Shown: piece by piece, positions 1 through 18,880 of the stretch | Layout of the letters: each line of letters begins with the position of its first letter | Numbering within the stretch: position 1 is the first letter of the stretch | Virus record (IMG/VR): IMGVR_UViG_2778261638_000005 | Location: 6,684-70,683 of that record | From: a virus | Taxonomy: Duplodnaviria; Heunggongvirae; Uroviricota; Caudoviricetes | Direction: 5' to 3' (one strand) | Length of the DNA: 64,000 nucleotides | Notes under the pieces: generated by a model | The model's database searches: none | What the model saw: only the letters and a program-made list of their open reading frames with translations | What the model was told of the DNA's origin: nothing | Program-made: the position numbers and the translations under genes

Positions 1-492
1 CTAATCCCGCTTCCTGCGCCGTCCTGAAATCAACACCCTGTGCTGTCAGCCGTTCAAACTCAGAAAAACCCTGTAGAGAAGTTACCGCCGCAGCACCTCC
101 GACCGGACCACCGAGCGTTGTACCGACAACAGCCTGCCCGCCCATATCGAACAACCCATAAAGAACCTGCCCGGCGGTTCCGGTTGTCGCGGCATCAGGC
201 GTCAGCCGCTTAACCTGCTGCTCTGCTAGTTTTCTCTGCTCAGCAATGTATGAAACTGAAGTGTCATTGAGCGAGGTGTTTTCGTTAACAAACTGAGCAA
301 TCGGGGATACGATTTTATCCATCCCTGCCCATAGCAACTGATCTGGCTTTGCCACCAGCCCGGAGTACAAACCAGACAATGCCGCTCCTACAGCGTTGTC
401 GAAAAAACCAACATCGCTGTTAAAGCCAGCTGGATTTGATGCTGCTTCGTCAAGCTGCTGATTCTGGTTTACTGGATTAAGGCCAAAGTAAC
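1..492 (-). CDS. phage virion protein, N-terminal part (gene runs off the window start)
   Basis: ATG at 492 on minus strand, open to position 1; absent from ORF track because there is no in-window stop; Gly/Ala-rich; immediately follows the 837-aa virion protein. Confidence 0.4.
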
Positions 493-3006
493 TCATTGCG
501 GAATATCTCCGGAGAATCTCTGACGCTTCTGTGTCAGATTAAGAACAACGGGAGAACCATCATCTTTCAGCAGATAACCAGTACCAAGTTTCACCAGGTA
601 CTGACTATCGCCGTAACTTTGCAAACCATACTGACCAGGCGGTGTTTTTATCCCGGTGCCGACAACTTGTTCATTCCAAGCCTGATTAACCTGCTTATCG
701 AATTGCTCTGCAGACATTCCCCACGGCAAAAGGACATTCCCCATTCCGTTATAGTCATGCACGCCACCTGTAGCTACGTTAACAGCCTGTTTCCAGATAT
801 CAGTGTCAATTTCGCCTGATATCACGCCTTTTTTCGCCATCACACCAGCGTAATAGTCCTTTGCGATCTCGTATGCCATTGATGCCCCCTGAGCATCACC
901 AGCAAATGCATCCTTCACCATGTCAGAAAACTCAAGGCGAAGATCAGCATCTTTAGGCATCGGAATACCTTTCGCATCATCAGTACCTTTACGAGCCGCC
1001 GCGCCAGCAAGAATTGTCTGCGCAGCGGTTTCAGGAGACACGGAAACATCCGGATTAAACCAGTTTGTTTCTGCCAAAATACCACCAGGCTTGTCCATCA
1101 GTATCCCGGCAACGGCAGCAGATGGAGCGTTGGCACTGATCTGCTGTAGTGCTGACATATACACCTGCCCACCACCAGTGCTCTGCCTGATGGTATCGAG
1201 ATATGCTGCCTGTTGGGAAACTGGAGCATCACGAAAGAAAACACCGATCTGATTGGCCTCGTCTTTGGAAAAGAACGTCAGTGGAGTGCCATATGACTTA
1301 GCAAGGTCACTGATCTGAGCGGCACGCAAGGCAACGCTCTGTCCAAAGTTATCCTTATTGCTCATGTCGATAGGCTTTGCCTGTCCGGAGGCAAGAGAGA
1401 ACTGCACAGGATCCGACTGCCGCTGCTTTATCACCTGATTTGCAGCCGAAACAACGTTGTCATAAAGAGCTGCGCGAGACGCATAACCCTCTCCTGTCTC
1501 ACCAGTATCCGGGCGTAATTGCTCAACATATGCGGTAATGCTGCTTGTCGGCATGTTGCGGAAAGAGCCTATATACTGTCCGGCGATCTGCGTATTTCTG
1601 AACTCGGTATATCGCAGGTTTCCTTCTCTGACGCCATAAGCTGCAATAAAATCATCCTCACCAGGTGGGTTAGGAAATTCAACGCCACGCATATACGCAG
1701 CCGTCGCATCGCGAACCTTGCTGTCAATTATCGTTTTATATTCAGCCTGCTGCTGCCGACGCAGTTGATCCGCCTGTCGCATAAAACTTGCCTGAGCCTC
1801 AGGAGATGCCGCATCGAATGCTGCATTACCGGTATAGCGTTTGGTGTTGGTTGGAATTGTTGATAAACCAAGTGCTGCACTGACACCAGCAGTTAACTGC
1901 TGATCACTGTATGGCTGGCTACCGTTCTCATGATGGATAATGGCTGCACAAAGCGCCTTCAGGGTATCAGGATTAGATGCATCGAGAGGATCATCAGCAG
2001 AAACGCCAAGTTGTTCGCACACTGCTTTGATATACGACATAGTATCATTTTTATCAGTAGGCGGTGCCCAGCGATTAATTATCTCGCTGACGGTATCAAT
2101 ACCCTGCCTCTGATACGACATCAGGTTTCGCCCTAATGCACGAATCCCGTGTTCAGGTGTTTCGAATTTAGCAAATCGACCATCATCACCGGTCTGGCCT
2201 ACCCACGGATTAGTTTTGCTGTATTCGAGATTTCCTGGGTTATTGTTGCGTATGCCACGGGCACGCTCGGAAGAGTCACTATCTGCTACAGCACGGCGAG
2301 CTCCAGCAGCAGTATCACTTAACTCGCCATTATTTTGGATGAATGCGGTCGCATTGTTTGCCGACCACTGGGACAATGCGGCATCAGCAACCTTCTCTTT
2401 AAACTCGATTTTCTTGGCCTGGATTTGCTCGTCGCTCCAGCCATGCGCAATGCCGTAATCCTCAATTTGCTGGAAAGTTTGCTTATTAGCCAATACATAT
2501 GCGGCATTGTCGCCATACAATGCTGCGGCATTTTTACCATTATTCAGCAGCGTCGCCTGAAACTGACCTTCTTCGTAGGCATTAATTTGCCCTATCTCGT
2601 GCCGCCCGGCCTGCGTAGTGAACTGAATGCGCTGCTGCTGCGCCTGCTGCATGAAAGCATTACGAGTCTGTTCATCCGGCAGCGACATAGCCAGTTGCTC
2701 GACCTGGGCATCAAACTGCTGCGTATACTCCTGACCTTTTCCAATAGCATTTTTCCCTTTCAGGTTAAGCAAACCTGTTTCAGGGTTATTCAGCAGATCG
2801 CTGCTTATCTGGCTTAAGCTAAGAGAAGCATCCTGAGCCATAGCAACATTCGCACGCTGTTTTGCCTGCGCAATAATACCTGCATATTGCTCTGCAACAT
2901 CGCCAAGTACATCACCGACATTTGGTGTCTGAAACGATGAGAATCCCTGCGTCGAAATCCCTCTGCTCTGAACCTGACGGCCCGATGTTGTTGGTACAAC
3001 TGGCAT
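493..3006 (-). CDS. large internal virion / ejection-type protein with possible muralytic motif
   Basis: 837 aa, Gln/Ala-rich; central NNNPGNLEY...GIRALG motif; distal position in a podovirus-like structural module. Confidence 0.45.
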   Translation of the reverse strand: MPVVPTTSGRQVQSRGISTQGFSSFQTPNVGDVLGDVAEQYAGIIAQAKQRANVAMAQDASLSLSQISSDLLNNPETGLLNLKGKNAIGKGQEYTQQFDAQVEQLAMSLPDEQTRNAFMQQAQQQRIQFTTQAGRHEIGQINAYEEGQFQATLLNNGKNAAALYGDNAAYVLANKQTFQQIEDYGIAHGWSDEQIQAKKIEFKEKVADAALSQWSANNATAFIQNNGELSDTAAGARRAVADSDSSERARGIRNNNPGNLEYSKTNPWVGQTGDDGRFAKFETPEHGIRALGRNLMSYQRQGIDTVSEIINRWAPPTDKNDTMSYIKAVCEQLGVSADDPLDASNPDTLKALCAAIIHHENGSQPYSDQQLTAGVSAALGLSTIPTNTKRYTGNAAFDAASPEAQASFMRQADQLRRQQQAEYKTIIDSKVRDATAAYMRGVEFPNPPGEDDFIAAYGVREGNLRYTEFRNTQIAGQYIGSFRNMPTSSITAYVEQLRPDTGETGEGYASRAALYDNVVSAANQVIKQRQSDPVQFSLASGQAKPIDMSNKDNFGQSVALRAAQISDLAKSYGTPLTFFSKDEANQIGVFFRDAPVSQQAAYLDTIRQSTGGGQVYMSALQQISANAPSAAVAGILMDKPGGILAETNWFNPDVSVSPETAAQTILAGAAARKGTDDAKGIPMPKDADLRLEFSDMVKDAFAGDAQGASMAYEIAKDYYAGVMAKKGVISGEIDTDIWKQAVNVATGGVHDYNGMGNVLLPWGMSAEQFDKQVNQAWNEQVVGTGIKTPPGQYGLQSYGDSQYLVKLGTGYLLKDDGSPVVLNLTQKRQRFSGDIPQ

Positions 3007-3018
3007 CTTATTATCCCC

Positions 3019-3558
3019 TTATCGACCGGTTGGAGTGCCAACAGCAGCAGAAATCGGCGCAGCCTTCTGAGAGAATGGGCTCCACGTTCCTCCGCCCATC
3101 TGGTATGCACCGTATGCTTTTAGTGGTGCCGTTAACAAAGTGCTGGTCATCGATGATTTAGCAGCCGACTGAGCAGCAGCCCCCTGTGCCTGAGCATTCA
3201 TTCCCTGAACCTGATACCCATATGCCTCACGCTGAGCATTATTCACTGTCGTTAACGCATCAAGAGTGCCGAACTGAGCATTATCCGCAAAAACGTCAAG
3301 AGCTGTTCCGCTACTTAATTCCGCACCGGTAGCCCCCATAGTGGCCGCCGCAGTGCCTGAGCGTTGACGCATTTCACGACGACGCTGATCCGCTTCAATA
3401 TTCCCACGATTGATTGAATCCTGTGCCTGAGCTTCAGCAATTTCAGTATTCCGATCAGCTATGGCTGACTGGTATTTTGCCTGCTTGCTCTGGCTGTACA
3501 TTGACGCGGCTGTGGATGCCACTGTGACGGCAACCAAAGCGATGGCTGGGTTACACAT
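3019..3558 (-). CDS. putative internal virion protein
   Basis: 179 aa, N-terminal hydrophobic segment then Ala/Gln-rich region; structural-module position. Confidence 0.35.
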   Translation of the reverse strand: MCNPAIALVAVTVASTAASMYSQSKQAKYQSAIADRNTEIAEAQAQDSINRGNIEADQRRREMRQRSGTAAATMGATGAELSSGTALDVFADNAQFGTLDALTTVNNAQREAYGYQVQGMNAQAQGAAAQSAAKSSMTSTLLTAPLKAYGAYQMGGGTWSPFSQKAAPISAAVGTPTGR

Positions 3559-4022
3559 TATTTTCTCTCCATGTGAAATCTGTGGAAATTAAGACCAAGA
3601 GCACCATAAGGCGCGGCTTCTTCAAGCCTGAATCCAAGCCAGTGCAGCCATGCTTTGGCAACATGGTTTCGCTCGTCGACGTAGTTTTCCAGGCGCGGAT
3701 AAACTGCCAGCATCTGCTGCAATACAGGGCGGCAGTGGCGAAGAAATGTCTTCTGATATTTTTCAATACGGCTGGTTCCGACCAGCCAGGGCGTACCATT
3801 GCCACCAATCATTGACGCCGGAGATACACCAAACATGGTTACCAGTTCTCCGTTTGCAAATCCTGACCAGGCCATGGTCGCAGTGCGCAGACCAACACGC
3901 AGCGCATCTTCGGTAGTCATCAGCGATACAGCATACAGTTCGTCAATATCAGCCTGACGAACATCCGGCAAAATCATCTGAAGATGCTCTTCGGTTGCGG
4001 GAATAATTTGAACATCGATCAT
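3558..4022 (-). CDS. hypothetical protein, structural module
   Basis: 154 aa ORF, translationally coupled to neighbours. Confidence 0.35.
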   Translation of the reverse strand: MIDVQIIPATEEHLQMILPDVRQADIDELYAVSLMTTEDALRVGLRTATMAWSGFANGELVTMFGVSPASMIGGNGTPWLVGTSRIEKYQKTFLRHCRPVLQQMLAVYPRLENYVDERNHVAKAWLHWLGFRLEEAAPYGALGLNFHRFHMERK

Positions 4023-6493
4023 CAGAATCCCCCAACAGTAAGGCGAGGAATAACGGCAAGAACAGACAGCGGCAACGGATCAAGCTGACGGATTTTTACA
4101 CGTCCGTTTTTGCCCCAGTTACTGTCCAGTTTCACTTCTACTTTTCCGGTAGCGTCATCAACAGGATCATCGTAGAACTCGAATTCACGCTGTGGATATT
4201 CGTACCATTTACCGCCGGGAGTAGTCGCCCAGATGCCGCGACTGGCATTCACAACCAGAGTAACGGACGGGATCACCTGTTTTTTGTCCAGCAGCGTTTC
4301 CTGTCCGTTAATGTTGATATCCAGTGTTTCGAATTCAGCAGTTATTGGCAGGCCGATGTGCACTACAGCCCCTGGTGATTCAAGCGTGACGGCACCTCCG
4401 GAAACTACTTTCTGTGGTTCCACGTTCGCATCAGAGAGGATGTTTACGGTCTGACCTTCAAGATGAGACAAGCCGCCAAATGCCCGGCGCGCCATCTGCC
4501 AGTTCGTGGTGGCCACATTCCTGAGGGATGGCGGGACGTTCCTGTTAGCACGAACCACTACAGCGGTGTTGCTGGTTACAGAAATAATGTCGCAACGTAA
4601 TTCTTTTGACACTTCATCGCCAGTATCAGGATCAGTTCCGGTATAAGGGAACTGTAGTTGCGCACCGACATCACTACTGGTGAAGTACGCACCACCAGAA
4701 ATACTGATTGTATATTCCGCGCGGTAATCCCATTCGCCAGAACCACCAGTGATGGTCATCGTTCTGTCAGACGTATTTCTTCCATCATAGCTAAGGCCAG
4801 AATCAACAAAGAAAGCATCTTCATCGCTGGTAAATAAACGGCTGGACAGCCGCTCGATGTATCTCACTGTTTGCCCGTTAACGGTTCGGTTAACGACGAA
4901 ATACACCGCATCTTCATTGCCTTCGCTGATACTGCATGTGCTTTCATATTTTCCGGTACTGGATTGTGGTGCCCATGCAAAAACCTGCTGATCACGCAAA
5001 TAGGTCATCACCAGTAATTTACCGTCATCACGAATGCAGAAGGCGCTGGAGTAAGGGACAATAGAGAAGCACCAGTCAACAATGCTGTGCTTCTGAAAAA
5101 GATGATTGGCAAGGATGGTCAGGTCGTTCCCCTGATAGCCGTCAACATCGAATGAGTAGGCCAAATCACGGACAACACTGCCTTTCTCCTGGACGAACAG
5201 AGCAATATTCGCCACGGCAATTGGTGGGACATTGCTCGAGCCATTTGATCCCTGAGAGCTGAATGCAAATGATGATGGGGTTAACACTTTGTTCTGGTCG
5301 CCGGTGATGACGTACTCACCTCCGGAAGTCAGTGCCACCAGCGAACCGACATCAATCAGGTGGCGGATCTCATTAACCTGACGCCCGGCATAGGTGTAGA
5401 TAATTCTGTCGTCATCCTGCGTAGGATTGCTTTTGCCAAAATCCTTATAATCCCCGGTACGGCTGGCCCAGATAGTCTGAGGGAACGCAGTCGATGCGGC
5501 GAAGTAAAGACGTTGTTGATAATAAACAACAGTGCCAGGATAACCATTAACACTGTTCCAGGTATATTTAGCCCATTTATAGCTGGCATTATCCTCGCCA
5601 ACTACCTGCGAAGGGATATAGGAAATCACCTCGGCAGTTGCAGTAGTTCCATTTGCAGCAGTGATACGGGCAATGCCAAAACCACTGTGCAGATATTCCC
5701 ACTCAATGCCAGTATCATCATCACCGGATCCGCCCCAGCCATCCCATGATGTGCCTTCTGTATGCGAAGGGCGCAAAGTACCTGTTTTGCCTGCTGTAAC
5801 GGCGCGATAGTAGTTACTGTCTGCACGGCGAATATCGCCAATCGACGTACTCTTACTGGTTTCCCATACCGGCACTGAATCCACTGCAGGCTGTTCCAGA
5901 TAGAACAATTTTCCTACCTGCTCCGCGCCAAAAATAGAGGCGCTTGCCGTTAACGTAATTGTCCCGGTGCTGGCGCTGGCATAAACCGTCACTGACTCGT
6001 CAATATTGATATCTTCAAATGGCCCGTTCTTCGTTACCACATCAACCAGTTGCCAGTTGTCATGAGCATATCGGCGCAACTCTTTCGGCGGGTATGCCGG
6101 GTGAACCAGCGTAAGCACGTCGGCGCTTTGCGTGAATTTAATTCGGAACAGATCGGCTTCAGTATATGGCGTGGCAATTTCATAAATAACATTGCTGCTG
6201 TTCAGCACCAACGCACCATCTTTGATAACGCGCATGTACTGGTGTCCGAACTCCAGAGCATAGGTCTGAACCGTCGAGAACTGGAACGGGATCAGGCGGC
6301 ATTTCCGATTTGGGTATTTGGCGGCACCGACAAAACGCGTACCAGGTCGATTCTCAACGCCGCCATACTGCCGCACGATAAAGTTATCGCACTTGCGCAA
6401 TGCCACCTGGTACTTCGCCATGTCAATACGCCCGTACAACGACGGTCCAATCTCACCACCGGCAAAGCTGGGCTGGATCCAACTGATAGCCAT
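4022..6493 (-). CDS. tail tubular protein B-like (nozzle) protein
   Basis: 823 aa, directly after a tail tubular A-like gene; size and order as in T7-like gp11-gp12. Confidence 0.45.
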   Translation of the reverse strand: MAISWIQPSFAGGEIGPSLYGRIDMAKYQVALRKCDNFIVRQYGGVENRPGTRFVGAAKYPNRKCRLIPFQFSTVQTYALEFGHQYMRVIKDGALVLNSSNVIYEIATPYTEADLFRIKFTQSADVLTLVHPAYPPKELRRYAHDNWQLVDVVTKNGPFEDINIDESVTVYASASTGTITLTASASIFGAEQVGKLFYLEQPAVDSVPVWETSKSTSIGDIRRADSNYYRAVTAGKTGTLRPSHTEGTSWDGWGGSGDDDTGIEWEYLHSGFGIARITAANGTTATAEVISYIPSQVVGEDNASYKWAKYTWNSVNGYPGTVVYYQQRLYFAASTAFPQTIWASRTGDYKDFGKSNPTQDDDRIIYTYAGRQVNEIRHLIDVGSLVALTSGGEYVITGDQNKVLTPSSFAFSSQGSNGSSNVPPIAVANIALFVQEKGSVVRDLAYSFDVDGYQGNDLTILANHLFQKHSIVDWCFSIVPYSSAFCIRDDGKLLVMTYLRDQQVFAWAPQSSTGKYESTCSISEGNEDAVYFVVNRTVNGQTVRYIERLSSRLFTSDEDAFFVDSGLSYDGRNTSDRTMTITGGSGEWDYRAEYTISISGGAYFTSSDVGAQLQFPYTGTDPDTGDEVSKELRCDIISVTSNTAVVVRANRNVPPSLRNVATTNWQMARRAFGGLSHLEGQTVNILSDANVEPQKVVSGGAVTLESPGAVVHIGLPITAEFETLDININGQETLLDKKQVIPSVTLVVNASRGIWATTPGGKWYEYPQREFEFYDDPVDDATGKVEVKLDSNWGKNGRVKIRQLDPLPLSVLAVIPRLTVGGF

Positions 6494-7098
6494 CAGGACA
6501 ACCTCGCAATGGTAAACTCATCAACCGGTGGCTGTGGTTCCTGTGATTCATTCTGGCTATGCGAGCCAGCACTAAGAATCACGCGATTGTACATATTGAG
6601 GGCAAACGTACCGAGGTCTGCATTCCCAGTCAGCGCCATGTTAATAGCTGCCGCAAGACGCCAGGCCAACGCCTCCATAAAAATGGCATCAAACATGTTC
6701 ACATCTGTAACGCGAGAGACATACTTGAGCCATGCCTGAGGCTGGTCTGTGTAGATCAACTTTCCTGTTCCGTTGGTGTCTGCACCAACTTCGTACTGAA
6801 CGCGCATTGCTGCTGTTGGATTGCGTACACCAGGAAGCATAATTTCAGTAATGCGCAGACAATCGGACGGGTACTGATACGCATATTCCCAGTCAGGCGG
6901 TGGATTGCTCGTATCTGCAAGCGACACGCGTTTGGTAGCAAAGTTCCAGTCAAAATCAGAAAGCACAGCATCACGGCAGGCCTCAAAGTGCAGCGAACAT
7001 TCCCCCGCTTCCTTGCTGGCTTCCGTCAGGCTGTTAATGCTGCGGCTATTGCCAATATTGGACAGCGCACGATTGCAGATCTCTACTACAGAGGCCAT
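6493..7098 (-). CDS. tail tubular protein A-like (adaptor) protein
   Basis: 201 aa; N-terminal LSNIG...SL pattern recalls T7 gp11; follows the capsid genes. Confidence 0.4.
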   Translation of the reverse strand: MASVVEICNRALSNIGNSRSINSLTEASKEAGECSLHFEACRDAVLSDFDWNFATKRVSLADTSNPPPDWEYAYQYPSDCLRITEIMLPGVRNPTAAMRVQYEVGADTNGTGKLIYTDQPQAWLKYVSRVTDVNMFDAIFMEALAWRLAAAINMALTGNADLGTFALNMYNRVILSAGSHSQNESQEPQPPVDEFTIARLS

Positions 7099-7427
7099 TA
7101 CTCACCCCCATTGCCGTACAGGGTTTCAGCCGCTGATTTTTCTACATCCCCGGAAACAGGAGCGATCGCCATATCAGTGATCTGCAGATCGGCGCTGCGA
7201 TTAACACCATCGTCAGTTTCTCTGGCAGACAGGCCTCGAATAACAGCCTTTGCAGTTATCATCACTTCTGTTCCGACGCCCTGAGGTTGCGCCTTCAGCT
7301 TATTCAATGTGTCGTTATTAAGAGTGATGCACAGCCCCCACGGGTATTCATCGCGAGTTCTGGTTTCTCCGCTCTCATCCTGGTAGCTGTCAGTGCCGGT
7401 TTTGAGGTTTACGAGTTCCATATACAC
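7098..7427 (-). CDS. hypothetical protein
   Basis: 109 aa ORF in structural module. Confidence 0.35.
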   Translation of the reverse strand: MYMELVNLKTGTDSYQDESGETRTRDEYPWGLCITLNNDTLNKLKAQPQGVGTEVMITAKAVIRGLSARETDDGVNRSADLQITDMAIAPVSGDVEKSAAETLYGNGGE

Positions 7428-7436
7428 TCCTGCAAT

Positions 7437-7455
7437 AAAGGGGCCGAAGCCCCTT
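7437..7455 (-). terminator. candidate stem-loop terminator after capsid-proximal genes
   Basis: GGGGC-N4-GCCCC hairpin followed by TTTATT on the minus strand, intergenic between two minus-strand genes. Confidence 0.3.
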
Positions 7456-7471
7456 ATCTGATTCGCGAGGC

Positions 7472-7816
7472 TTACACGCCCAGTTCTTTACGCTTATCTG
7501 CGATCTTCTCGCGGAGCGTTTCGGCTTTGGCGTTATGGTGTGGCTTCTCGTTAAAGAGCAATTCGTACTCTTCACGGAGCTTATCCAGTTCACCATCATC
7601 TGACACATCGTTGATGATTTTGGTGCTGGTTGCTGCCATAGACACCTTTCCTGCTACCTTTGCTTTTGCCTGTCTGGCTGCATCGTTAACAGGTTCCAGT
7701 GCGCTACCAGGCTCACCTTCGTATTCGATTTCTGCCCCCTCCGGCCACAGTGTGTTATGGATATGAGAGAGGCGCAGAACGCGGTATCTTGGTTTCTCAC
7801 CTGACATCGATATCAC
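7472..7816 (-). CDS. hypothetical protein
   Basis: 114 aa ORF, charged C-terminus. Confidence 0.35.
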   Translation of the reverse strand: MISMSGEKPRYRVLRLSHIHNTLWPEGAEIEYEGEPGSALEPVNDAARQAKAKVAGKVSMAATSTKIINDVSDDGELDKLREEYELLFNEKPHHNAKAETLREKIADKRKELGV

Positions 7817-7817
7817 C

Positions 7818-8255
7818 TTAACCAGTTACTTTTGAGCGGATCGGATACGGCGTATTGGCATCAACATCAAGACTGATACCAGCAGTGAATTCGCCAGCCG
7901 TTAGTGGGCCAGTTGCGACGGAGTAGTTAACACGCAGATATCGCTTAACACCGGCAGGCACCTTTGCAGAAACAATTCGTTTACCTGCTGTCAGGGCGGT
8001 CTTTGCCAGTGCGCCACTATCATAAATAGTGGTCCATGAGCTGTTATTCTCACTCGTCTGCAACTGGATGTTTACAGTTGCATCACCGCTTGCCGCGGCG
8101 GCTGTGTTAACCAGCGCCCAAAACTCAAGCGGGTAACCCACGCCGATATCACGATGTTTTCCGTCAATTGGACCGAGATCGATTACGTCAGTAGAAGCCG
8201 CGGTATTCGTAACCGCCTGAGCTTCGGAGAACATCAACAGTTTGTCGGTGATCAT
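7818..8255 (-). CDS. putative head decoration / accessory capsid protein
   Basis: 145 aa, Thr/Ala/Ser-rich beta-type composition, immediately downstream of major capsid gene. Confidence 0.3.
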   Translation of the reverse strand: MITDKLLMFSEAQAVTNTAASTDVIDLGPIDGKHRDIGVGYPLEFWALVNTAAAASGDATVNIQLQTSENNSSWTTIYDSGALAKTALTAGKRIVSAKVPAGVKRYLRVNYSVATGPLTAGEFTAGISLDVDANTPYPIRSKVTG

Positions 8256-8306
8256 CTTCTTTCTCCATTAGTGGGTCTGTTACGACCCACAGGTTAATAA
8301 CAGGCG

Positions 8307-9299
8307 TTACACCACGCGGGCTTCTGTTTCCAGAAGCGCATCAGTTTCACGGATTGGTACACCACGGAATGAAGTCCACCACTCGCCTTCTGTCTCTTTT
8401 ACGCTGATCGCCAGAGATGTTTTCTCCAGAGATTGCAGATCAAGAGCCTGGCCTACAGTGCGGTTCATGTAGAACACTGGGCGCCCCATGCCACGGTTTG
8501 GAATGCGATGCAGTGCTTTAACCATCAACTTCGCAATATTTGCGGCAGAGGAAGGTTCTGAAAGATTGCTGACATCGATGTTTGCAATGCGAACGACATA
8601 ACGCCAGTCACGCAGAGCAAGTCCGTTATCCCATTTGTAATGGGTACGGTAGCCTTCGTACTTGCCGCCATTAGCATCTTCCAGTGTCACTTGGCCTTTA
8701 TCTTCCATCTGAATGCCAGCCTTCTGCCCTTTCGGGAAGATGCCATGCACGGTGTTTTCGCCCCACACCACTAACCAGATTGAGGTGTTATCTGTACCCG
8801 TGCCACCAGCATCAATGATGTTCTGAGCATTACCCGCAGACAGGCTGGAATAGCGGGAGGACAGTCCCATAAACTGCTGAGGGTTAACGCTGGAATCACC
8901 ATAAAACAGCGTCTGCGCCATCTGCTGATTCATCGCTTCAATAAATGCTCGGTCTTCAGACAGGCGGAATTCGGCGGTATTGCCGTTCAGATCAGCCAGT
9001 GACTTATCGACCTCAGCATAGGTTTCCAGCATGCCAACGGAATCGGTGACCTGCACTGTGGTTGATTTGCTTGGCTGTACGCCATAGTTCAGCAAACGCC
9101 AGGTAGCTGAAGGTAAACCAGAACGAATGGTGGTTCGGTGTCCGGTAGGAAGGTTCCCTTCGACAAAAGGCATATCCTGAAGGATCGGGTTAGTTTGACC
9201 GAGAAGCTCGATAATCTTATCGACTTTCCCGTTTGGATCGACGCGCTTACCCCAGTCAGCCAGCGTTAGCGCAGTTAAGCCTTTAACAGCCATTGTCAT
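8307..9299 (-). CDS. major capsid protein
   Basis: 330 aa ORF between scaffold and tail genes; typical size and position. Confidence 0.65.
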   Translation of the reverse strand: MTMAVKGLTALTLADWGKRVDPNGKVDKIIELLGQTNPILQDMPFVEGNLPTGHRTTIRSGLPSATWRLLNYGVQPSKSTTVQVTDSVGMLETYAEVDKSLADLNGNTAEFRLSEDRAFIEAMNQQMAQTLFYGDSSVNPQQFMGLSSRYSSLSAGNAQNIIDAGGTGTDNTSIWLVVWGENTVHGIFPKGQKAGIQMEDKGQVTLEDANGGKYEGYRTHYKWDNGLALRDWRYVVRIANIDVSNLSEPSSAANIAKLMVKALHRIPNRGMGRPVFYMNRTVGQALDLQSLEKTSLAISVKETEGEWWTSFRGVPIRETDALLETEARVV

Positions 9300-9307
9300 T
9301 TCCTCTC

Positions 9308-10009
9308 TTATTTGCCATAGAGCACTTCGGCCGCACTACGCTGGCCTTCATTACCACCGGTGACCATGCCATCTTCAGACATCGCCTTTCCGATTTTCAC
9401 GAACGTTTTGACCAGATCAGGGTGATTACCCAGCCCGGTGGCGTTCAGATACTCTTTGAGTTCAGGTGTCCCGAACTGGTCAAGCGCACGCTGTGCGGCG
9501 CTAAGGTTAGAAATCAACTTGTCGCCACCGATTTCTTTGTCAGCTTTTACATCCGCAGCCCACTGCTCGGTTGTTTTCTGCCAGGCTTCTGCCTGGCGCT
9601 GCTGAACACCTGCCAGAATCTTCGGATAAGCATCAACCAGCTTTTGCGCTTGCTCGTTGGTCAGGTTAAGTTCTCGCGCCACCGGCTCGAATTCCTTCAA
9701 CGCTTCTGTATCCAGCTCTACGCCTTCGGCAGCCTGAAACTCGTACTTCTCAGGCGCACCCTCCGGTTTATCGCCGTCCTTTTTTTCACCCTGCTTATCG
9801 CTTTCAGGCTTTTTGTCATCAGCAGGTTTATCGCCATCAGCAACAGGTTGTGTCTTATCACCTTCCTGTTGTGATGGATCACCAACTGGAGCAGGGTTAT
9901 CACCTGCAGGCGCTGACGGTTCTGACGCAGCCGGAGCTGCTCCACCATCGACTGGTTGCTCATTGCAAAGACGGCGATACAGCAAACGCTCAAATAAATT
10001 CATGATCAC
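9308..10009 (-). CDS. scaffolding protein
   Basis: 233 aa, highly acidic low-complexity N-terminal half (D/E/K/P-rich), between portal and capsid. Confidence 0.55.
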   Translation of the reverse strand: MIMNLFERLLYRRLCNEQPVDGGAAPAASEPSAPAGDNPAPVGDPSQQEGDKTQPVADGDKPADDKKPESDKQGEKKDGDKPEGAPEKYEFQAAEGVELDTEALKEFEPVARELNLTNEQAQKLVDAYPKILAGVQQRQAEAWQKTTEQWAADVKADKEIGGDKLISNLSAAQRALDQFGTPELKEYLNATGLGNHPDLVKTFVKIGKAMSEDGMVTGGNEGQRSAAEVLYGK

Positions 10010-10302
10010 TCCTGTTCACTGGCCTCTTTGGCCATCTTCAAATACTGTTCAGGGCAATGCGCCATAACGCGCTGAAACAGTTCCAGCGCCAGATTGCGTT
10101 GCCCCTCATTAAATGCCATTGCCATAGCGTCCATCGGTGAGATAGCGGAAAACACACGGCCTTTCTCCAGCACCGACCAGACAACGCGACGCCCCTGTTC
10201 ACTGCTCATGACAAAGCGAATGTCATCAATTTCACGCTGCGCCATGTCACGTTGCTTACGGGCGTTTTCTTCTTTCAGTTGATCGTCTTCGTAATCTGTC
10301 AT
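10006..10302 (-). CDS. hypothetical head-module protein
   Basis: 98 aa ORF overlapping portal stop and scaffold start. Confidence 0.4.
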   Translation of the reverse strand: MTDYEDDQLKEENARKQRDMAQREIDDIRFVMSSEQGRRVVWSVLEKGRVFSAISPMDAMAMAFNEGQRNLALELFQRVMAHCPEQYLKMAKEASEQE

Positions 10303-11978
10303 TGTGATTGCCCACCCTGACCACTAACTGCATTCGCCATAGCTGACAAAACACTCGGATCCGAAGTTTTAGCTTCGCTTAGCGTCTTGGCACCCTGTGC
10401 CGCCGCCATCCCCATCGCCATCATTTGTTGCTGCTGTTGTTGCTGTGCCCGTTGCTGGCGAGTCTGCTCAACCTGTTCCTGCGGAACAATGACGGTTGGA
10501 GACACTCCGGACATATCAGCGAATGCATCGATCGCCTGATCAACGTTGAGTTTGTCGAGAGCTTCTGGTTTCGCTTGCGCAAGTTGACCAATGAAGTTGA
10601 CCGTAGACGCCAGACTGGACAGGCCGATAGACTTCTGCGCCTGAGCCATGACGGAAATGTATTCGACCTTCAGGGGCATACCTTCCATCGCGTCAGGCGG
10701 TGGCGGCAGCATTTTTTTACGCACCATCATCGAGAAAGCGCGGTCAATGAGAGGATTAAGACATTCGTCGTTCAGACGCTCCAGAACCGGCCCCAACATC
10801 AGAAGTTTTTCTTCTTTCATTTCGATCACCGCTTCAACAGGCATCGAGCGGGTATTGATGTTCTGCAACATCATGAACAGATCGACAAAGTAGGCGCTGT
10901 TAATGATTTGGCGAGTGTCCTGAATGTCTGCTACCAGATCTGCTGTACTGGGGTTAACCAGATAAGCAGGCCTGAAACCATCCTGACCAGTAATCTGATC
11001 GATATACGTGATGTCGCCAGGAAGAAGGGAGGCGCGCTGATTCTTGAGGGAAGTCGGAGCAACCATCGGCGGATTGGTGGCTTTATCAATCAACTGCGAC
11101 TTGCGCTTCTGGAGAAGCTGCAATGCCTTAACAGGTCCAAGCGCCAGCATACCCGGGCATGATGATCCATAAACATCTTCGCCGTTAACTTCCCAGCGCG
11201 GAGCCATAATTGGAAACTCATCGAATCCGGACTCACGCAACAACTTGTCGTTATCGCCACCAACCTCGTAATAAACCGATTTGAATGGCTTGTTCTTGCT
11301 ATCCAGCTTCGATGTATCGCGGTCAATGTTCGGGTAAACCGAATGCATCACTTCAATCCACTTCTCGTAGGTGCCGCTTTCCCACATGCTTTTTACGGAT
11401 TCGCTGACGTTATTTAGCCCGAACTCCTGAACAAGCTGACGAACAGTCATAGAGAACTTGCGAAAACAGGTGTCCACACTGCCACGAGGTGAGTTAGCCA
11501 GGTAGTAACTGCCTATCGGGAATGGCATTGTGCGAATGATGTCCTCGTCATCCTCCAGCACTGCCATTGCACCAGTGCTGTATGTGCCGAGGCTTCCGTA
11601 TAACTGCGGCAGAGACTGATAGAGATTCGACTTATTGAACATATCGTTCATGCGGTTCTGCACCGCCTCAAGCCACAACTTAACAGGGCCATAATCCATC
11701 ATTTCAGGATCTGGCGTAGCCAGGCGAAACCACGGACGCGCGGGGCTTGTGATGCCTGACATCATGCCGCTGGCGAGAGTGCGCGCCGCCATAGTCCCGG
11801 TCGAATCAATAATGCGTGTATTGCGTCGATCGTTACGGTTGACCTCAGAAGTCAGAAAGCGGGAACCACGCGGGTTGATGTAATCACTCAACTCGCGCCA
11901 GTGCGGCTCGAACGACTGACGCTCGCTTTCAAGTTGTGCGAACTGTTTGTTCAATCGCTCTTTAGTTGTTTCCGCCAT
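10299..11978 (-). CDS. portal (head-to-tail connector) protein, podovirus/T7-like
   Basis: 559 aa; Gln/Ala/Met-rich C-terminal tail (QQRAQQQQQQQMMAMGMAAAQG...) like the T7 gp8 C-terminus as recalled; sits between terminase and scaffold. Confidence 0.8.
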   Translation of the reverse strand: MAETTKERLNKQFAQLESERQSFEPHWRELSDYINPRGSRFLTSEVNRNDRRNTRIIDSTGTMAARTLASGMMSGITSPARPWFRLATPDPEMMDYGPVKLWLEAVQNRMNDMFNKSNLYQSLPQLYGSLGTYSTGAMAVLEDDEDIIRTMPFPIGSYYLANSPRGSVDTCFRKFSMTVRQLVQEFGLNNVSESVKSMWESGTYEKWIEVMHSVYPNIDRDTSKLDSKNKPFKSVYYEVGGDNDKLLRESGFDEFPIMAPRWEVNGEDVYGSSCPGMLALGPVKALQLLQKRKSQLIDKATNPPMVAPTSLKNQRASLLPGDITYIDQITGQDGFRPAYLVNPSTADLVADIQDTRQIINSAYFVDLFMMLQNINTRSMPVEAVIEMKEEKLLMLGPVLERLNDECLNPLIDRAFSMMVRKKMLPPPPDAMEGMPLKVEYISVMAQAQKSIGLSSLASTVNFIGQLAQAKPEALDKLNVDQAIDAFADMSGVSPTVIVPQEQVEQTRQQRAQQQQQQQMMAMGMAAAQGAKTLSEAKTSDPSVLSAMANAVSGQGGQSQ

Positions 11979-11992
11979 TTCAATGACTCCGG

Positions 11993-12199
11993 TTACTGAC
12001 CAAGTAGCGTTTTACCGCTGGTATTAGCGGTTGATGTGTCGCCCTGAGAACCGGTAAGCAGCGTAGAACTACGACCAGCAGCAGCGCGACGGCGACGAGT
12101 TTCTTCGTCGCGGGCATCAACAACGGCGGCATCCTGCTCCTGTGGTGCTGCCTGAACTTCTGGTGTTGCAGGCACTGATGGTGAGCTACCCATGCACAT
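11993..12199 (-). CDS. small Ser/Thr/Ala-rich protein (putative)
   Basis: 68 aa ORF with GGAG RBS 8 nt upstream, just upstream of portal. Confidence 0.25.
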   Translation of the reverse strand: MCMGSSPSVPATPEVQAAPQEQDAAVVDARDEETRRRRAAAGRSSTLLTGSQGDTSTANTSGKTLLGQ

Positions 12200-12626
12200 A
12201 TCAATGACTCCGTACGCAATTAAATTATTACCAATTTAACCACATATGATTTATTTATCGTAGTCGGTTGACATTTAACGCACGAATTATTACCTTTCAG
12301 GTAACCAAAAAGTTCATTCCGGTTACTAACCTGACTGGCTTGTCGTTAAATTGAACAGGTGGAGTGAGCTTTTATTTTGAGCAGTACGGCGTATGGCACA
12401 TGCGCCGATAGCGGCCTGGATACGTTTAAGGGGCACCCTCCCTTGCTCGGGCAAACGAACCAGGTAGCCGGAATGTGCAAGTCGAGCGGTTTTATTCCGC
12501 GCACGGGGATTCACCATCCCGGCGATTCGGTGTGACGCCTCGGAAGAGACGAGGGTACAACGATGAGAGCATTTATGGAGCCGCGACAAAGTGTGGTGCC
12601 TTAACAGGCTAAGTGCTCTCAGCGTT

Positions 12627-12703
12627 GTGGCATTAGCTCAGTCGGACAGAGCAACCGCCTTCTAAGCGGTTGGTCGCAGGTTCGAATCCTGCATGCCACG
12701 CCA
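12627..12703 (+). tRNA. tRNA-Arg (anticodon TCT)
   Basis: Cloverleaf read from sequence: acceptor GTGGCAT/ATGCCAC, D-arm GCTC-AGTCGGACA-GAGC, anticodon stem ACCGC/GCGGT with loop CTTCTAA, T-arm GCAGG-TTCGAAT-CCTGC, discriminator G, CCA. Confidence 0.85.
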
Positions 12704-12864
12704 GAATCACGCCTAAGGACCGTGATGCCAGAAGTTCCAGTGCTTGGCGGTGATGGTTTCCCTTGAAGGACTATCACCGCACTTTTTACAGCAGGACGCC
12801 ATTGCGATGACTTCATGCTGTAAACCCGTACAGCCACGGAAGGAAGAACTCATTGCTTCCAGTT

Positions 12865-12889
12865 CGCCCGGTTCGCCGGGCATTTTTTT
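12865..12889 (+). terminator. rho-independent terminator-like hairpin
   Basis: GCCCGG-ttcg-CCGGGC stem followed by ATTTTTTT, downstream of the tRNA. Confidence 0.5.
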
Positions 12890-12900
12890 AAGGTGAGATT

Positions 12901-13257
12901 ATGAACGACCAGCAAATCGAAAAAGAAATCGTTGAGAAAGGCAAAACGGCACCGCGAGTTACGCCTCAATATATCGAAAGCATCATTCTTGAAGAGCATT
13001 TCTTTACTGCTTATGACGGCATTCGTGCCGCCAATATGGGCGTTGGCGATTCATGGACAGCGCATAACTCTACAGACCTCCTGACTTTCTGCGTACTGGT
13101 GCTGAAGAATGGCTTCACCGTCACCGGAGAGAGTGCCTGTGCAAGCCAGGAAAACTTTGATGCAGAAATTGGTCGGAAGATTGCCCGGCAGAATGCTGTA
13201 AACAAAATCTGGATGCTCGAAGGTTACTTGCTGAAGCAGAAGCTAAGCGAGCAATAA
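12901..13257 (+). CDS. hypothetical protein (opposite-strand moron-like gene)
   Basis: 118 aa ORF with AAGGTGAG RBS; only plus-strand gene in an otherwise minus-strand morphogenesis block. Confidence 0.5.
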   Translation: MNDQQIEKEIVEKGKTAPRVTPQYIESIILEEHFFTAYDGIRAANMGVGDSWTAHNSTDLLTFCVLVLKNGFTVTGESACASQENFDAEIGRKIARQNAVNKIWMLEGYLLKQKLSEQ

Positions 13258-13347
13258 CACCGTGACATGTCACAAACAGCCAGCCGATGAGCTGGCTTTG
13301 TTTTATCCTCACCAGAGGATATCAGCAGCATTATCCCCTCCAACGGA

Positions 13348-14823
13348 TTAAGCATAGGGATCGTAATCTGTGATGGCCTTGCCTTGCTGGTTCTGCTGCC
13401 CGGGAATTCGCAGACGCTTCGACACAGGGAACGCAAACGTCAGCAGTAGCGCATCGCCTTTACCCGGCGAACGCCCAAGCCGCTCCTTGATATCTTCCTT
13501 CGGTTCGATAACGATTTTACCGTCCACTCGAACTTTGTACTCAGCCGCCGACAGGTCGTCCGCTGTTTCCTGGTCATCAAGCATGCCACCCAGCCTCAGC
13601 CATGTCTTGCATGAGTTGAACATCTCCCCACGCTTGTTGAGCATCTGCGGGTCAGTAGACGCGCCACCGAACGGAACAAGTTGCCATGTACGACCCCAGC
13701 CGTCACCGATTGACTTCAGACCAGTTCCGTAACCGAAGTCGATGAACACTGCGTCAGCCTGGTACTGGTCTTCAAAGTCAGCGATACGCTTCGCCATAAT
13801 CAGATCGTCAGTGGTCTTGTTGCCAGTCCACAGCACCTTACTGTGCAGCCCCTGCCGCAGGTATATCACAGCGTCATCAACGCCGGAGTATGCCGGGTCA
13901 ACGCCGATTATCACCGGAGCATGTGCAACCTGCGCAGCGGTTACCACCCGTTTCATTGCCTCGTCAGTAAGGCCAGTAGGGATAAACTGCAATTCAGATG
14001 CATCCGGGAATATGCCGCGCACACGGATTTTAACGAAGTCGCTGTCTTCCCCGTAGTCATCAACCCATTTCTGCAACTGCTGTTTGTTAGTGCCTTCCAC
14101 CGTCCGGCTGTCAATCTGCGCACACTTCCAGCGGTGTTTGTACTTGCGGAAACATTCACGGAAACGCCCGGTGTTACGCGTCGGGTTTCCGAACGCCACC
14201 CAGATAATCTCAGTGTCTTCGTCCGTTAGCGCACCCTCGGCAACTTCCCACACCAGATCCGCAATGTTCGACGCTTCATCGAATACCACGATGATGCGTT
14301 TGCGCTCGTTGTGTAGTCCGGCGAATGCCTCAGTGTTGTGCTCAGACCAGGGGATTGCGTCAGCTCGCCACCGCTTGTCGTGCCCAGGGTCATTGCTGTA
14401 CATCGCGGTAGCGGTACAGGTAAACCAGTCTTTCGTGATAGCAAGGTTCGACCACTTGATAATTTCCGGCCAAGTCTTCGTTCGTAGCTGGTTGTCGGTG
14501 TTGGCGGTCACCACGACCTTACAATCCTCGCAAGTGGACATGCCCCAGTTGATCAGCATTGAGATGAATGCGGATTTACCAATACCGTGACCCGAAGCAC
14601 GTGCCAGCATAAGCGGCTGATAGCGCGTCTCTGGATTCTGCAGGTGATCACGTATCTCTCGGAACGCATCAGCCTGCCACTGACGTGGACCGGTGGCATG
14701 TGCTAATTCAGTCCCCTCTTCCCCCCACGGGAACGCATAGAGGGCATAGCCAAGCGGATCGTGAGTGAACCCTGCAATATCCTCGATCAACTGCTCTTCA
14801 GGAGATAACGCTGTATCTGTCAC
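13348..14823 (-). CDS. terminase large subunit
   Basis: 491 aa; Walker A-like SGHGIGKS and Walker B-like IIVVFDEAS; nuclease-type C-terminal half. Confidence 0.85.
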   Translation of the reverse strand: MTDTALSPEEQLIEDIAGFTHDPLGYALYAFPWGEEGTELAHATGPRQWQADAFREIRDHLQNPETRYQPLMLARASGHGIGKSAFISMLINWGMSTCEDCKVVVTANTDNQLRTKTWPEIIKWSNLAITKDWFTCTATAMYSNDPGHDKRWRADAIPWSEHNTEAFAGLHNERKRIIVVFDEASNIADLVWEVAEGALTDEDTEIIWVAFGNPTRNTGRFRECFRKYKHRWKCAQIDSRTVEGTNKQQLQKWVDDYGEDSDFVKIRVRGIFPDASELQFIPTGLTDEAMKRVVTAAQVAHAPVIIGVDPAYSGVDDAVIYLRQGLHSKVLWTGNKTTDDLIMAKRIADFEDQYQADAVFIDFGYGTGLKSIGDGWGRTWQLVPFGGASTDPQMLNKRGEMFNSCKTWLRLGGMLDDQETADDLSAAEYKVRVDGKIVIEPKEDIKERLGRSPGKGDALLLTFAFPVSKRLRIPGQQNQQGKAITDYDPYA

Positions 14824-15494
14824 TGATTACCATCCTGACGTTCTTTGAGTCGCTTCCTGGCTGCTGCTATGCGATCAGCAATTGTCACATTCACATTAAC
14901 ATCCAGACGTTCTTTGAACGCGTTGACATCAACATGCTTACCAATCAGCTCAAGGTTCTTCACCTTGTCAGGCCATTTAATTTTTTTGAGGATTGTCTCT
15001 ATCGAATCCTCGTTCATGTTCATGATGGTCGATGACAGATCAAAGCCACTAAGCGTAGTGCGCCAAATTTTCGGCCACTCACGGATTGGTTTAAGGCTCC
15101 CATCGTCGTTGAGGATGTCGATCACGTCCATCTGGTCGATCTCCACCAGGCGCATGAGAACGTAATCAGCACTGACGCGCATTCGTTTGTTGCGCTCCTC
15201 CATCAACTCGGCAATCCGTTTTTGAATGCGTTCATCGCGCATCATGACACTGGCTTTAACTGCCGCTGTATTTGGGGAGAATCCTGCGTTAATCGCTGCC
15301 TGAGTCTGGTTTTCAGGCGTTTTGATGTATGACTGGCAATAAGCCTCCTGCATTGCTGTTAGTGGCTTAAATTGCGTTGATTTGCGTTTATAGGTTTTAG
15401 GTTCAGCAGGCATCATAACCACCGTGGTAATAGTTACCGTTGTGGTAATAGTATCATGCAAAATAAAGCCGCCATAGTTGGCGGCAGTATTCAA
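14820..15494 (-). CDS. terminase small subunit
   Basis: TPENQTQAAINAGFS HTH motif typical of terminase small subunits; probable true start at MMPAEP (15416); coupled to large subunit. Confidence 0.7.
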   Translation of the reverse strand: MNTAANYGGFILHDTITTTVTITTVVMMPAEPKTYKRKSTQFKPLTAMQEAYCQSYIKTPENQTQAAINAGFSPNTAAVKASVMMRDERIQKRIAELMEERNKRMRVSADYVLMRLVEIDQMDVIDILNDDGSLKPIREWPKIWRTTLSGFDLSSTIMNMNEDSIETILKKIKWPDKVKNLELIGKHVDVNAFKERLDVNVNVTIADRIAAARKRLKERQDGNQ

Positions 15495-15534
15495 AACCCA
15501 TCAAATTCATCATGCATAATCTACTCGTGACATG

Positions 15535-15873
15535 TCACACTATTAATTTCGTTTCATGCCAGCCTTTAGTCACCCAGCATTGCGAGTCACCATTACACGG
15601 GCATGAATTAACTGGAACTCTCTCGCCGCACTTACCGCAACGTTTTCTGCTGATCGATTTTATACGCCCGCGCACGCGTGCATCATCCTGGCGGATCAGT
15701 AACGCTATATACTCACCAAATTCGTAAGGCGCACGCCCGGGGCGACGCGTGGCACAGTTACGCTCCAGCATTTCAATTTCCTGAGCATCAAGCACAATTT
15801 CCAGCTTACGCACACCAGATGCAGCTTGTCTGGCTCTCTGAGCGGCTTTGCGCTCTGCTGATGATTTAGCCAT
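15535..15873 (-). CDS. hypothetical protein, Cys-rich C-terminus
   Basis: 112 aa, CGKCG...CPC motif. Confidence 0.4.
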   Translation of the reverse strand: MAKSSAERKAAQRARQAASGVRKLEIVLDAQEIEMLERNCATRRPGRAPYEFGEYIALLIRQDDARVRGRIKSISRKRCGKCGERVPVNSCPCNGDSQCWVTKGWHETKLIV

Positions 15874-18471: not shown

Positions 18472-18532
18472 CTTTACCCTCGCTTATCCACATAACTTAT
18501 TGATTACATTGATAACTAAAAAGATCGTCGAT

Positions 18533-18877: not shown

Positions 18878-18880
18878 GAT

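Follow-up and report, generated by a model that had tools for sequence, protein, structure and literature searches.

Genomic setting of the 837-aa gene

The locus raises the question of what a large phage protein with a possible cell-wall-hydrolase motif does, and when during infection it would do it. The original prediction placed a Gln/Ala-rich protein distally in the structural module and suggested, with an uncertain motif assignment, that it is an ejected internal protein degrading peptidoglycan as T7 gp16-type proteins do. The window (the whole stretch of DNA analysed, 64,000 nucleotides) contains the gene near its start. The open reading frame and both motifs quoted for it were found at the coordinates listed here and in the next section. 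The genes at this end of the window are as follows:

2..496, (-) strand: next gene, first 165 codons, homolog of epsilon15 gp16 / phiV10 p19; start codon (ATG) overlapping the 837-aa gene's stop; truncated by the window start; phrog_1145, E=3.5e-86
493..3006, (-) strand: complete gene of the 837-aa protein, a predicted virion protein; ATG start, TGA stop (ORF list)
3019..3558, (-) strand: upstream gene, T7 gp14-like internal virion protein, 179 aa; Pfam PF24072 (T7_gp14), E=7.3e-8, 33 bits (cut-off 27); phrog_418, 'internal virion protein'
3558..4022, (-) strand: gene in the gp13 position, 154 aa; phrog_308, 'internal virion protein', E=9e-63
4022-6493, (-) strand: gp12-like nozzle, 823 aa
6493-7098, (-) strand: gp11-like adaptor, 201 aa

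The two tail genes (4022..7098) match phrog_376 and phrog_394 ('tail protein') and phrog_9239 ('tail tubular protein'). Pfam Phage_T7_Gp13 matches the 154-aa protein weakly (E=0.088). The 837-aa frame is a real gene and not a chance ORF, because a Shine-Dalgarno-like GGGGA lies 7 nt 5' of its ATG, its stop overlaps the start of the next gene as ATGA, phrog_992 matches it over aa 1-832 (E=0), and it has many relatives.

By its sequence, the gene belongs to an E. coli prophage of the genus Uetakevirus (epsilon15/phiV10-like). Its product falls into the gp15 orthologous group of Uetakevirus (phrog_992), which it resembles over the full length and in gene neighbourhood. The phiV10 ortholog is p18 (AAZ95911.1 / YP_512272.1), with ~97% nucleotide identity and identical gene order. 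The epsilon15 ortholog is gp15 (AAO06078.1), with ~75% nucleotide and 59% amino acid identity and again identical gene order; identity is very high over aa 1-540, and the C-terminal ~300 residues have diverged. The gene is thus a near-identical allele of an already known phiV10/epsilon15 virion gene, and in itself offers little that is new. Orthology to epsilon15 gp15 suggests that the protein is present in the virion.

The order of the genes (gp11-like, gp12-like, gp13-position, gp14-like, the 837-aa gene, two large proteins) is that of T7 genes 11-16. The record of epsilon15 gp11 cites T7 tail tubular protein A, and RefSeq labels phiV10 p16 and p17 'internal virion protein'. The 837-aa gene lies directly downstream of the gp14 homolog in this tail/internal-protein operon. 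Homologs of T7 gp11, gp12, gp13, and gp14 precede it, and it is therefore in the gp15 position. Its supposed distal location did not hold, as two further large virion genes and then the tailspike gene follow the ortholog in both phiV10 and epsilon15. The gene seems distal because the window begins 492 bases downstream of it.

Gly/Ala-rich hydrophobic stretches occur in phiV10 p19. The window is collinear with phiV10 across 1-15534 at 95.8%. Canonical Mu end sequences were searched for and none was found, apart from one chance-level match; a Mu-like insertion was located by comparing the window with phiV10.

The predicted peptidoglycan-degrading domain

The centre of the protein holds a domain of ~130 residues of the Enc34/PHA02564 type, and the following features were assigned to it:

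1813..2262, (-) strand: Enc34/PHA02564-type domain, predicted to degrade peptidoglycan, aa 249-398; folded core ~249-380
2221..2250, (-) strand: RNNNPGNLEY motif, aa 253-262; N254, N256, P257, G258, and N259 invariant in the family alignment
2122..2178, (-) strand: RFAKFETPEHGIRALGRNL motif, aa 277-295; end of a beta-hairpin and start of a helix; P284, G287, and A290 invariant
2068..2070, (-) strand: codon of Trp313 (RWAPP), equivalent to Enc34 Trp79 by alignment to 7q47; role from PMC8943055
2032..2034, (-) strand: codon of Tyr325 (MSYIK), equivalent to Enc34 Tyr95 by alignment to 7q47; Tyr in 19/20 relatives
1927..1929, (-) strand: codon of Glu360 (HHENGS), aligned in 7q47 with Enc34 Glu131, the residue proposed as catalytic; Glu in 20/20 relatives; role from PMC8943055

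[quoted passage not shown] The domain also matches 9vvp_L by sequence. The AF2 model (mean pLDDT 82.8) supports the same identity, and the domain has the all-helical fold of this type, which resembles the alpha-lobe of lysozyme. Equivalents of Enc34 Glu131, Trp79, and Tyr95 are all present, and position 313 is aromatic in every one of the 20 relatives (W 13, Y 5, F 2). The guess of a cell-wall hydrolase holds because this central domain is a close match to an enzyme proven to degrade cell walls; the hydrolase-like fold on which the prediction had been staked was detected, and the catalytic residues are conserved. A Pfam scan, suggested as a check, returned no match for the 837-aa protein, nor did NCBIfam; scans of 20 relatives against both libraries were likewise without a match, as the domain family is not modelled there.

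The domain is named as muralytic by family likeness, on which its predicted activity rests. Enc34 ORF39 and M4Lys of phage BSPM4 break down peptidoglycan in vitro, and M4Lys frees GlcNAc (PMC8943055, PMC7143992). Characterized members of the PHA02564 family look like N-acetylglucosaminidases, and the M4Lys data also hinted at endopeptidase activity (PMC8943055, PMC7143992). Extrapolation from these enzymes, which are ~35-44% identical, suggests that the domain cuts the N-acetylglucosaminidase bond and does not carry out the lytic-transglycosylase reaction.

Existing annotations of the orthologs conflict. They read 'putative lytic transglycosylase', 'hypothetical structural protein', or 'head protein', and none names an Enc34-type domain. 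The first of these is the GenBank description of epsilon15 gp15 and follows an HHpred hit to SltB. The practical gain is thus one of annotation: 'hypothetical protein' and 'head protein' are the names on most database copies, and a better name is internal-virion/ejection protein with an Enc34/PHA02564-type peptidoglycan hydrolase domain.

Ejection protein or tail component

The preferred reading, with a probability of roughly 75%, is that the 837-aa protein is ejected at infection and makes a local opening in the peptidoglycan, with an architecture of three parts plus a conserved C-terminal module. The regions outside the enzyme domain are as follows:

2272..3006, (-) strand: N-terminal region, aa 1-245; residues 1-42 disordered, a Gln/Ala-rich bundle of helices at 36-226, and a disordered linker at 232-245
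2272..2313, (-) strand: flexible linker, aa 232-245; pLDDT <50; site of a 104-aa insertion in 935-aa alleles
496..1812, (-) strand: C-terminal module, aa 399-837; mainly helices, ending in a small beta-sheet (AF2); part conserved throughout the family

In the AF2 model, pLDDT is 80-92 at aa 50-226 and <50 at aa 1-42 and 232-245. The description of the protein as Gln/Ala-rich is borne out by its composition (Ala 12.5% and Gln 9.0% overall; 14.3% and 13.1% within aa 1-245). It has no transmembrane or signal segment, with a top 19-residue Kyte-Doolittle mean of 1.02. A family-profile search of PDB sequences gave no match for the N- and C-terminal regions, and the extra hits were only chance matches to apolipoprotein A-I (E ~0.14).

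T7 gp15, which forms the periplasmic tunnel (PDB 7K5C, 6YT5), occupies the same slot after gp14. The top two non-enzyme fold matches found in the PDB by Foldseek are both T7 gp15, and both are weak (7k5c_A, E=1.6e-3, prob 0.95; 6yt5_A, E=6e-3). The 3Di alignments to T7 gp15 span the whole 837-aa protein, again as a weak fold similarity. Alignment of the family profile (A1) to T7 gp15 with hhalign gave no signal (probability 0.3%), and there was no PDB sequence match to it. Synteny and this weak fold similarity suggest that the 837-aa protein is an ejected internal protein.

We infer ejection, its timing, and the specificity of the enzyme along these lines. The protein would be packaged in the virion along with the gp14-like product and those of the two large genes that follow, and after adsorption would exit through the portal-tail channel. 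Once in the periplasm, the enzyme domain would cut glycan strands locally, with Glu360 as the catalytic acid and the sugar held in position by Trp313 and Tyr325. A DNA conduit across the envelope would then be built from the protein's helical regions together with its partners.

The strongest competitor, though an unlikely one, makes the protein a permanent structural component of the hub or tube of the external tail, with the lytic domain at the tail tip; it would then be a tail-associated lysin and not an ejected protein. Genetic work led to such a proposal for epsilon15 gp15, and Guichard 2013 reportedly proposed gp15 and gp17 as the tail tube of epsilon15. The homologs of T7 tail tubular proteins A and B just upstream can, however, account for the hub, and the 837-aa gene directly follows a Pfam-confirmed T7 gp14 homolog. 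Both of the best non-enzyme fold matches are T7 gp15, and the AF2 model shows an elongated, flexible, helical protein whose ends are disordered, as in known ejection proteins. Against ejection stands the literature on epsilon15: PMC12391199, with reference to Guichard et al. 2013, counts gp15 as a component of the tail packaging/injection device, and in a review gp17 is the only protein assigned to the internal core (PMC5850374). The exchange of lytic domains described below suggests a second look at how epsilon15 proteins have been assigned (gp15 to the tail tube; gp11, gp12, and gp13 to the ejection proteins in a review table).

Exchange of lytic domains among relatives

An initial homolog search yielded nothing beyond near-identical copies from E. 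coli. More diverse relatives came from a search of cluster representatives, which returned 12,822 proteins at E<=1e-3; most distant relatives match aa ~395-830 only. The C-terminal module of ~440 residues is kept in syntenic relatives, and the lytic domain has been exchanged. Among relatives with the same C-terminal module and gene order, an SLT domain (P0135, L003) or a GH108 domain (P0166, L005) occupies the same central site. Domains borne by BFVD relatives are of the GH108, SLT, tail-lysozyme, NlpC/P60, or M23 type, at E-values as low as 8.5e-34. In the 935-aa alleles, the 104-aa insertion lies between aa 242 and 249 (BLASTP against P0003), and this insert has no significant match in Pfam or the PDB.

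These data bear on the very improbable alternative that the central domain lacks catalysis, as a structural relic or a peptidoglycan-binding module, and that the protein is only a scaffold or conduit. The lytic activity of T7 gp16 is dispensable under many conditions, as cited in PMC8954989. Yet over relatives only 22-51% identical the catalytic Glu never varies and both aromatic residues are conserved, and relatives swap in other intact lytic domains rather than losing the domain.

A broader model, more doubtful than the ejection reading and put here at somewhat less than even odds, is that gp15-type proteins of Uetakevirus are a T7-gp15-like tunnel scaffold fused with an exchangeable lytic cassette at one flexible linker. 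Some alleles would add the 104-residue module, and the enzyme in the present allele would be an N-acetylglucosaminidase rather than a lytic transglycosylase. If this is true, epsilon15 gp15 would be an ejected periplasmic-tunnel protein, as opposed to the tail-tube component of the current literature. A single conserved scaffold on which lytic domains are swapped illustrates modular evolution in the ejection proteins of podophages.

Comparison with known peptidoglycan-degrading phage proteins

Enc34 ORF39 (PDB 7Q47) and M4Lys of Salmonella phage BSPM4 (PHA02564 'V virion protein' family) are ~26-kDa endolysins of the lysis cassette with a C-terminal transmembrane domain. Here, in contrast, the domain lies in the middle of an 837-aa virion protein that has no transmembrane segment. 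The whole-protein architecture of an Enc34-type endolysin is absent, given the lack of a hydrophobic segment, the location of the gene in a virion operon, and the separate lysis cassette of phiV10. That the protein is itself an endolysin, lysing the cell from within late in infection, is scarcely credible: the solved homolog Enc34 ORF39 is an endolysin and some matched PHROG families are labelled 'endolysin' (phrog_1044, phrog_873), but the gene sits within a virion operon and overlaps its neighbour, and the reading was rejected because phiV10 has its own holin-endolysin-Rz/Rz1 (spanin) cassette.

The likeness to T7 gp16-type proteins proposed in the original prediction is apt, with corrections. 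T7 gp16 carries an N-terminal SLT lytic transglycosylase domain and has the same proposed job, local cleavage of peptidoglycan by a virion protein at the start of infection (PMC8954989). It differs in enzyme family, in the position of the domain within the protein, in gene slot, and in size. No Pfam SLT match at E<=0.1 was found in the 837-aa protein, so that the SLT/GH23 domain of the T7 gp16 family is missing; the lytic domain lies centrally and belongs to a different family. Alignment to T7 gp16 with hhalign gave no signal (probability 0.15%). The gene, moreover, is in the gp15 position.

The likeness is borne out by Gp29 of PDB 9VVP, an internal or ejectosome protein of a podophage with the same domain type, 55% identical. 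In Gp29, the domain is at the N-terminus of a 1295-aa gp16-type protein, whereas here it is central in a protein of the gp15 position. The K1E, K1-5, and SP6 gp15-like proteins, described as having lysozyme activity, likewise place the lytic function on the ejection protein in the gp15 position and not on gp16 (PMC8954989); these phages belong to another family, the Autographiviridae. The Gp29 sequence of 9VVP matches 'internal virion protein D' of Kayfunavirus (T7-like) phages at up to 99% (tblastn; e.g., LM33_P1, CLB_P1, and PE3-1).

Central lytic domain of the 837-aa protein

The 837-aa gene occupies 493..3006 on the minus strand, where the original prediction had placed it, and runs for 837 codons from an ATG start to a TGA stop. 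An SD-like GGGGA lies 7 nt 5' of the ATG, directly past the stop of the preceding gene, and the stop codon shares bases with the following gene's ATG (ATGA at 496..493). The ORF is therefore a real gene in a tightly packed operon. The two motifs quoted in the prediction are present at aa 253-262 and 277-295, and the protein is Gln/Ala-rich as described (12.5% Ala and 9.0% Gln overall; 14.3% Ala and 13.1% Gln in aa 1-245). No membrane-spanning hydrophobic segment is found in the protein (highest 19-residue Kyte-Doolittle mean 1.02).

Pfam and NCBIfam scans of the protein give no match. A PDB sequence search returns two strong matches, both limited to aa 249-398: 9vvp_L, named Gp29 (1295 aa; E=6.8e-38), and 7q47_A (E=2.3e-17), which is the endolysin catalytic domain of Hafnia phage Enc34. 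When the query is a family profile of 20 full-length but diverse relatives (22-51% identical), these values become 3.5e-54 and 8.8e-41, respectively. The Enc34 fold is related to the alpha-lobe of lysozyme-like enzymes (GH73 and GH23), with its helices in permuted order, and the proposed catalytic residue of Enc34 is Glu131, assisted by Trp79 and Tyr95 (PMC8943055). The counterparts of these three residues in the 837-aa protein, by HMMER alignment, are Glu360 (HHENGS), Trp313 (RWAPP), and Tyr325 (MSYIK). Glu360 is invariant across the 20 relatives, as is the NNPGN motif within the first quoted motif; position 313 is aromatic in all 20, and Tyr325 is kept in 19.

Two members of the family have shown activity: the Enc34 domain on permeabilised E. 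coli, P. aeruginosa, and H. alvei, which it lyses (PMC8943055), and M4Lys of phage BSPM4, probably an N-acetylglucosaminidase, which degrades purified peptidoglycan with release of GlcNAc (PMC7143992). The family is thus characterised, and the predicted cell-wall-hydrolase assignment is borne out by the matches to it and by the conserved active-site residues. By homology, the central domain is almost certainly a peptidoglycan hydrolase, and probably a glucosaminidase rather than an SLT-type transglycosylase.

The same module is found elsewhere in gp16-type proteins. By tblastn, the Gp29 N-terminal sequence is 98-99% identical to proteins of Kayfunavirus phages, including LM33_P1, CLB_P1, and PE3-1, labelled 'internal virion protein D', 'DNA ejectosome component', or 'internal virion protein with endolysin domain'. 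The matched protein is the gp16 equivalent in these T7-like phages. Its N-terminal domain in Gp29 is 55% identical to the central domain of the 837-aa protein; the lytic module is N-terminal in the gp16-type protein of Kayfunavirus, whereas in Uetakevirus it is central within the protein at the gp15 position. T7 gp16, in contrast, has an SLT domain unrelated by sequence to the Enc34-type domain. The Pfam scan gives no SLT match in the 837-aa protein, and hhalign of its family against T7 gp16 gives a probability of 0.15%.

Exchange of lytic domains on a conserved scaffold

In the predicted structure, aa 1-42 are disordered and aa 36-226 form a long helical bundle. A disordered linker (aa 232-245) leads into the enzyme domain, followed by a mostly helical C-terminal module (aa ~395-790) with a small beta-sheet at its end. 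A search of 1.84 billion cluster representatives finds 12,822 proteins at E<=1e-3, of which 329 also reach E<=1e-30. For the majority of distant relatives, the match is confined to aa ~395-830, and the C-terminal module is therefore the conserved core of the family.

Relatives that keep this module but differ in the middle carry either SLT (P0135, P0165, P0212, and P0214) or GH108 (P0166, P0169, and P0249) at about residues 250-450, with gene order unchanged. At locus L003, portal, capsid, 207-aa, 894-aa, 123-aa, and 206-aa proteins precede the SLT protein, which is followed by a 602-aa protein, an 824-aa protein, and the tailspike; locus L005 has the GH108 variant in the same arrangement. Against predicted viral structures, the whole 837-aa model aligns over 850-950 columns (E down to 8.5e-34) with matches annotated GH108, SLT, tail-lysozyme, LT_GEWL, NlpC/P60, or M23. 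These swaps of lytic enzymes at a fixed position on a conserved scaffold are strong comparative evidence that the central site is selected for cell-wall cleavage.

Nearly all near-identical E. coli copies among the homolog matches listed are 935 aa long. In these alleles, 104 extra residues are inserted precisely at the disordered linker (window 2272-2313, aa 232-245), before the enzyme domain. The insertion (aa 243-346 of the relative P0003; GNINLFNRP...EVLIPTVSDDG...) has no significant match in Pfam or PDB and matches phrog_19413 weakly. By eye, P0214 has a similar segment after its SLT domain.

Gene neighbourhood and proposed role at entry

Genes in minus-strand reading order
8307-9299, minus: major capsid protein (Pfam GP7, E=2e-149)
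After the major capsid gene, minus: three small ORFs
6493-7098, minus: gp11-like adaptor
4022-6493, minus: gp12-like nozzle
3558-4022, minus: gp13-position gene, 154-aa protein (PHROG label 'internal virion protein')
3019-3558, minus: gp14-like protein (Pfam T7_gp14, E=7e-8, above gathering score)
493..3006, minus: 837-aa gene, next after the gp14-like gene
2-496, minus: epsilon15 gp16 homolog, cut by the window start

For the first small ORF, the phiV10 counterpart is annotated as resembling Bbp16 of Bordetella phage BPP-1. The order around the 837-aa gene is that of T7 genes 11-16, so the protein occupies the gp15 slot. Its predicted place at the distal end of the structural module does not hold: in phiV10 and epsilon15, the ortholog is followed by two further large virion genes, with the tailspike after them, and the apparent end is thus an effect of the window cut.

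When the 837-aa model is compared by Foldseek with 350,542 PDB chains, the top two non-enzyme matches are both T7 gp15: 7k5c_A, the periplasmic tunnel (E=1.6e-3, prob 0.95), and 6yt5_A, the gp15-gp16 core (E=6e-3, prob 0.87). The alignments span the whole query, but at TM-scores of only 0.15-0.18, and profile comparison of the family with T7 gp15 gives a probability of just 0.3%. Homology to T7 gp15 is plausible but not established, and a gp15-like role rests mainly on gene order.

The favoured reading, at a probability of roughly 0.75, is that the 837-aa protein is carried in the virion and set free at infection, where Glu360 would cut the sacculus locally so that a trans-envelope conduit can form. 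Action of the lytic domain at entry is itself quite likely, and an internal, ejected protein is somewhat favoured over a part of the external tail. Published placement puts epsilon15 gp15 in a tail device or tube, an assignment reportedly made by Guichard 2013; this main rival is improbable, as the gp11- and gp12-like tail proteins present can account for the hub. An inactive central domain, against which the conserved active-site residues argue, is very unlikely. A role as lysis endolysin can for practical purposes be discounted: a separate holin-endolysin-spanin cassette exists in phiV10, and the 837-aa protein has no membrane or export signal.

In kind, and almost in its details, the finding was known before: the gene is a phiV10 p18 allele, its epsilon15 ortholog already bears the label of a putative lytic enzyme, and the Enc34-type family has a solved structure and activity assays. 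Ejection proteins of gp15 or gp16 type that bear lytic domains have also been reviewed (PMC8954989). The additions of this analysis are the exact domain family (Enc34/PHA02564), the residues of the active site, and the observation that lytic domains are exchanged like cassettes at one linker.

The 154-aa gp13-position protein matches Pfam T7 gp13 at E=0.088 only, and its epsilon15 homolog is labelled, by HHpred, a GNAT-fold acetyltransferase. The epsilon15 gp16 homolog in phiV10 is p19 (600 aa; L002 7202-9004), for which no Pfam family was found. Its first ~280 residues contain Gly/Ala-rich hydrophobic stretches (Kyte-Doolittle mean peaking at 1.74, aa 260-278), making p19 a candidate membrane-inserting partner. 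In Table 1 of PMC8954989, the epsilon15 ejection proteins resembling gp14, gp15, and gp16 are given as gp11 (229 aa), gp12 (499 aa), and gp13 (708 aa); GenBank sizes disagree (gp11 201 aa, tubular-A-like; gp12 825 aa; gp13 154 aa). Gene order and the Pfam T7_gp14 match point to gp14, gp15, gp16, and gp17 as candidates.

Source phage and nested Mu-like prophage

Over window 1-15534, the sequence is collinear with, and 95.8% identical to, that of Escherichia phage phiV10 (genus Uetakevirus). The 837-aa gene is about 97% identical in nucleotides to phiV10 p18 and about 75% to epsilon15 gp15 (59% aa). A cluster of 4,311 member sequences, 98% identical to the 837-aa protein, is found on a 5.26 Mb E. 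coli contig, and the phiV10-like element is therefore a prophage. Database labels for the orthologs conflict with one another: p18 is a 'hypothetical structural protein, similar to PM2 P5' in GenBank and a 'head protein' in RefSeq, and epsilon15 gp15 is a 'putative lytic transglycosylase; HHpred 4anr SltB'.

From the small terminase gene to the Mu-like insertion (window 15535-19091), the sequence is mosaic, aligning to phiV10 in patches only (92-99% identity; gaps at about 15874-16596 and 17642-18313). PHROG matches of its ORFs are only to families of unknown function.

Nested in the phiV10-like prophage is a transposable, Mu-like prophage, complete and about 36.9 kb long (window 19092-56000). 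It is 97-98% identical to Mu_3F6, SfMu, and D108.

Features of the Mu-like prophage
19173-19910: Mom-like gene
20114-20695: invertase
52716-54803: 695-aa ORF, taken from size and position only to be a MuA-like transposase

Canonical Mu end sequences were not found. Close to each end there is an inverted repeat, AAATCATTTGATAC (19103-19116 and 55977-55990). GCAC flanks both sides at the junctions (19088-19091 and 56001-56004), and the insertion, at phiV10 position ~34936-34939, splits the homolog of p44 ('replication protein P') of phiV10.
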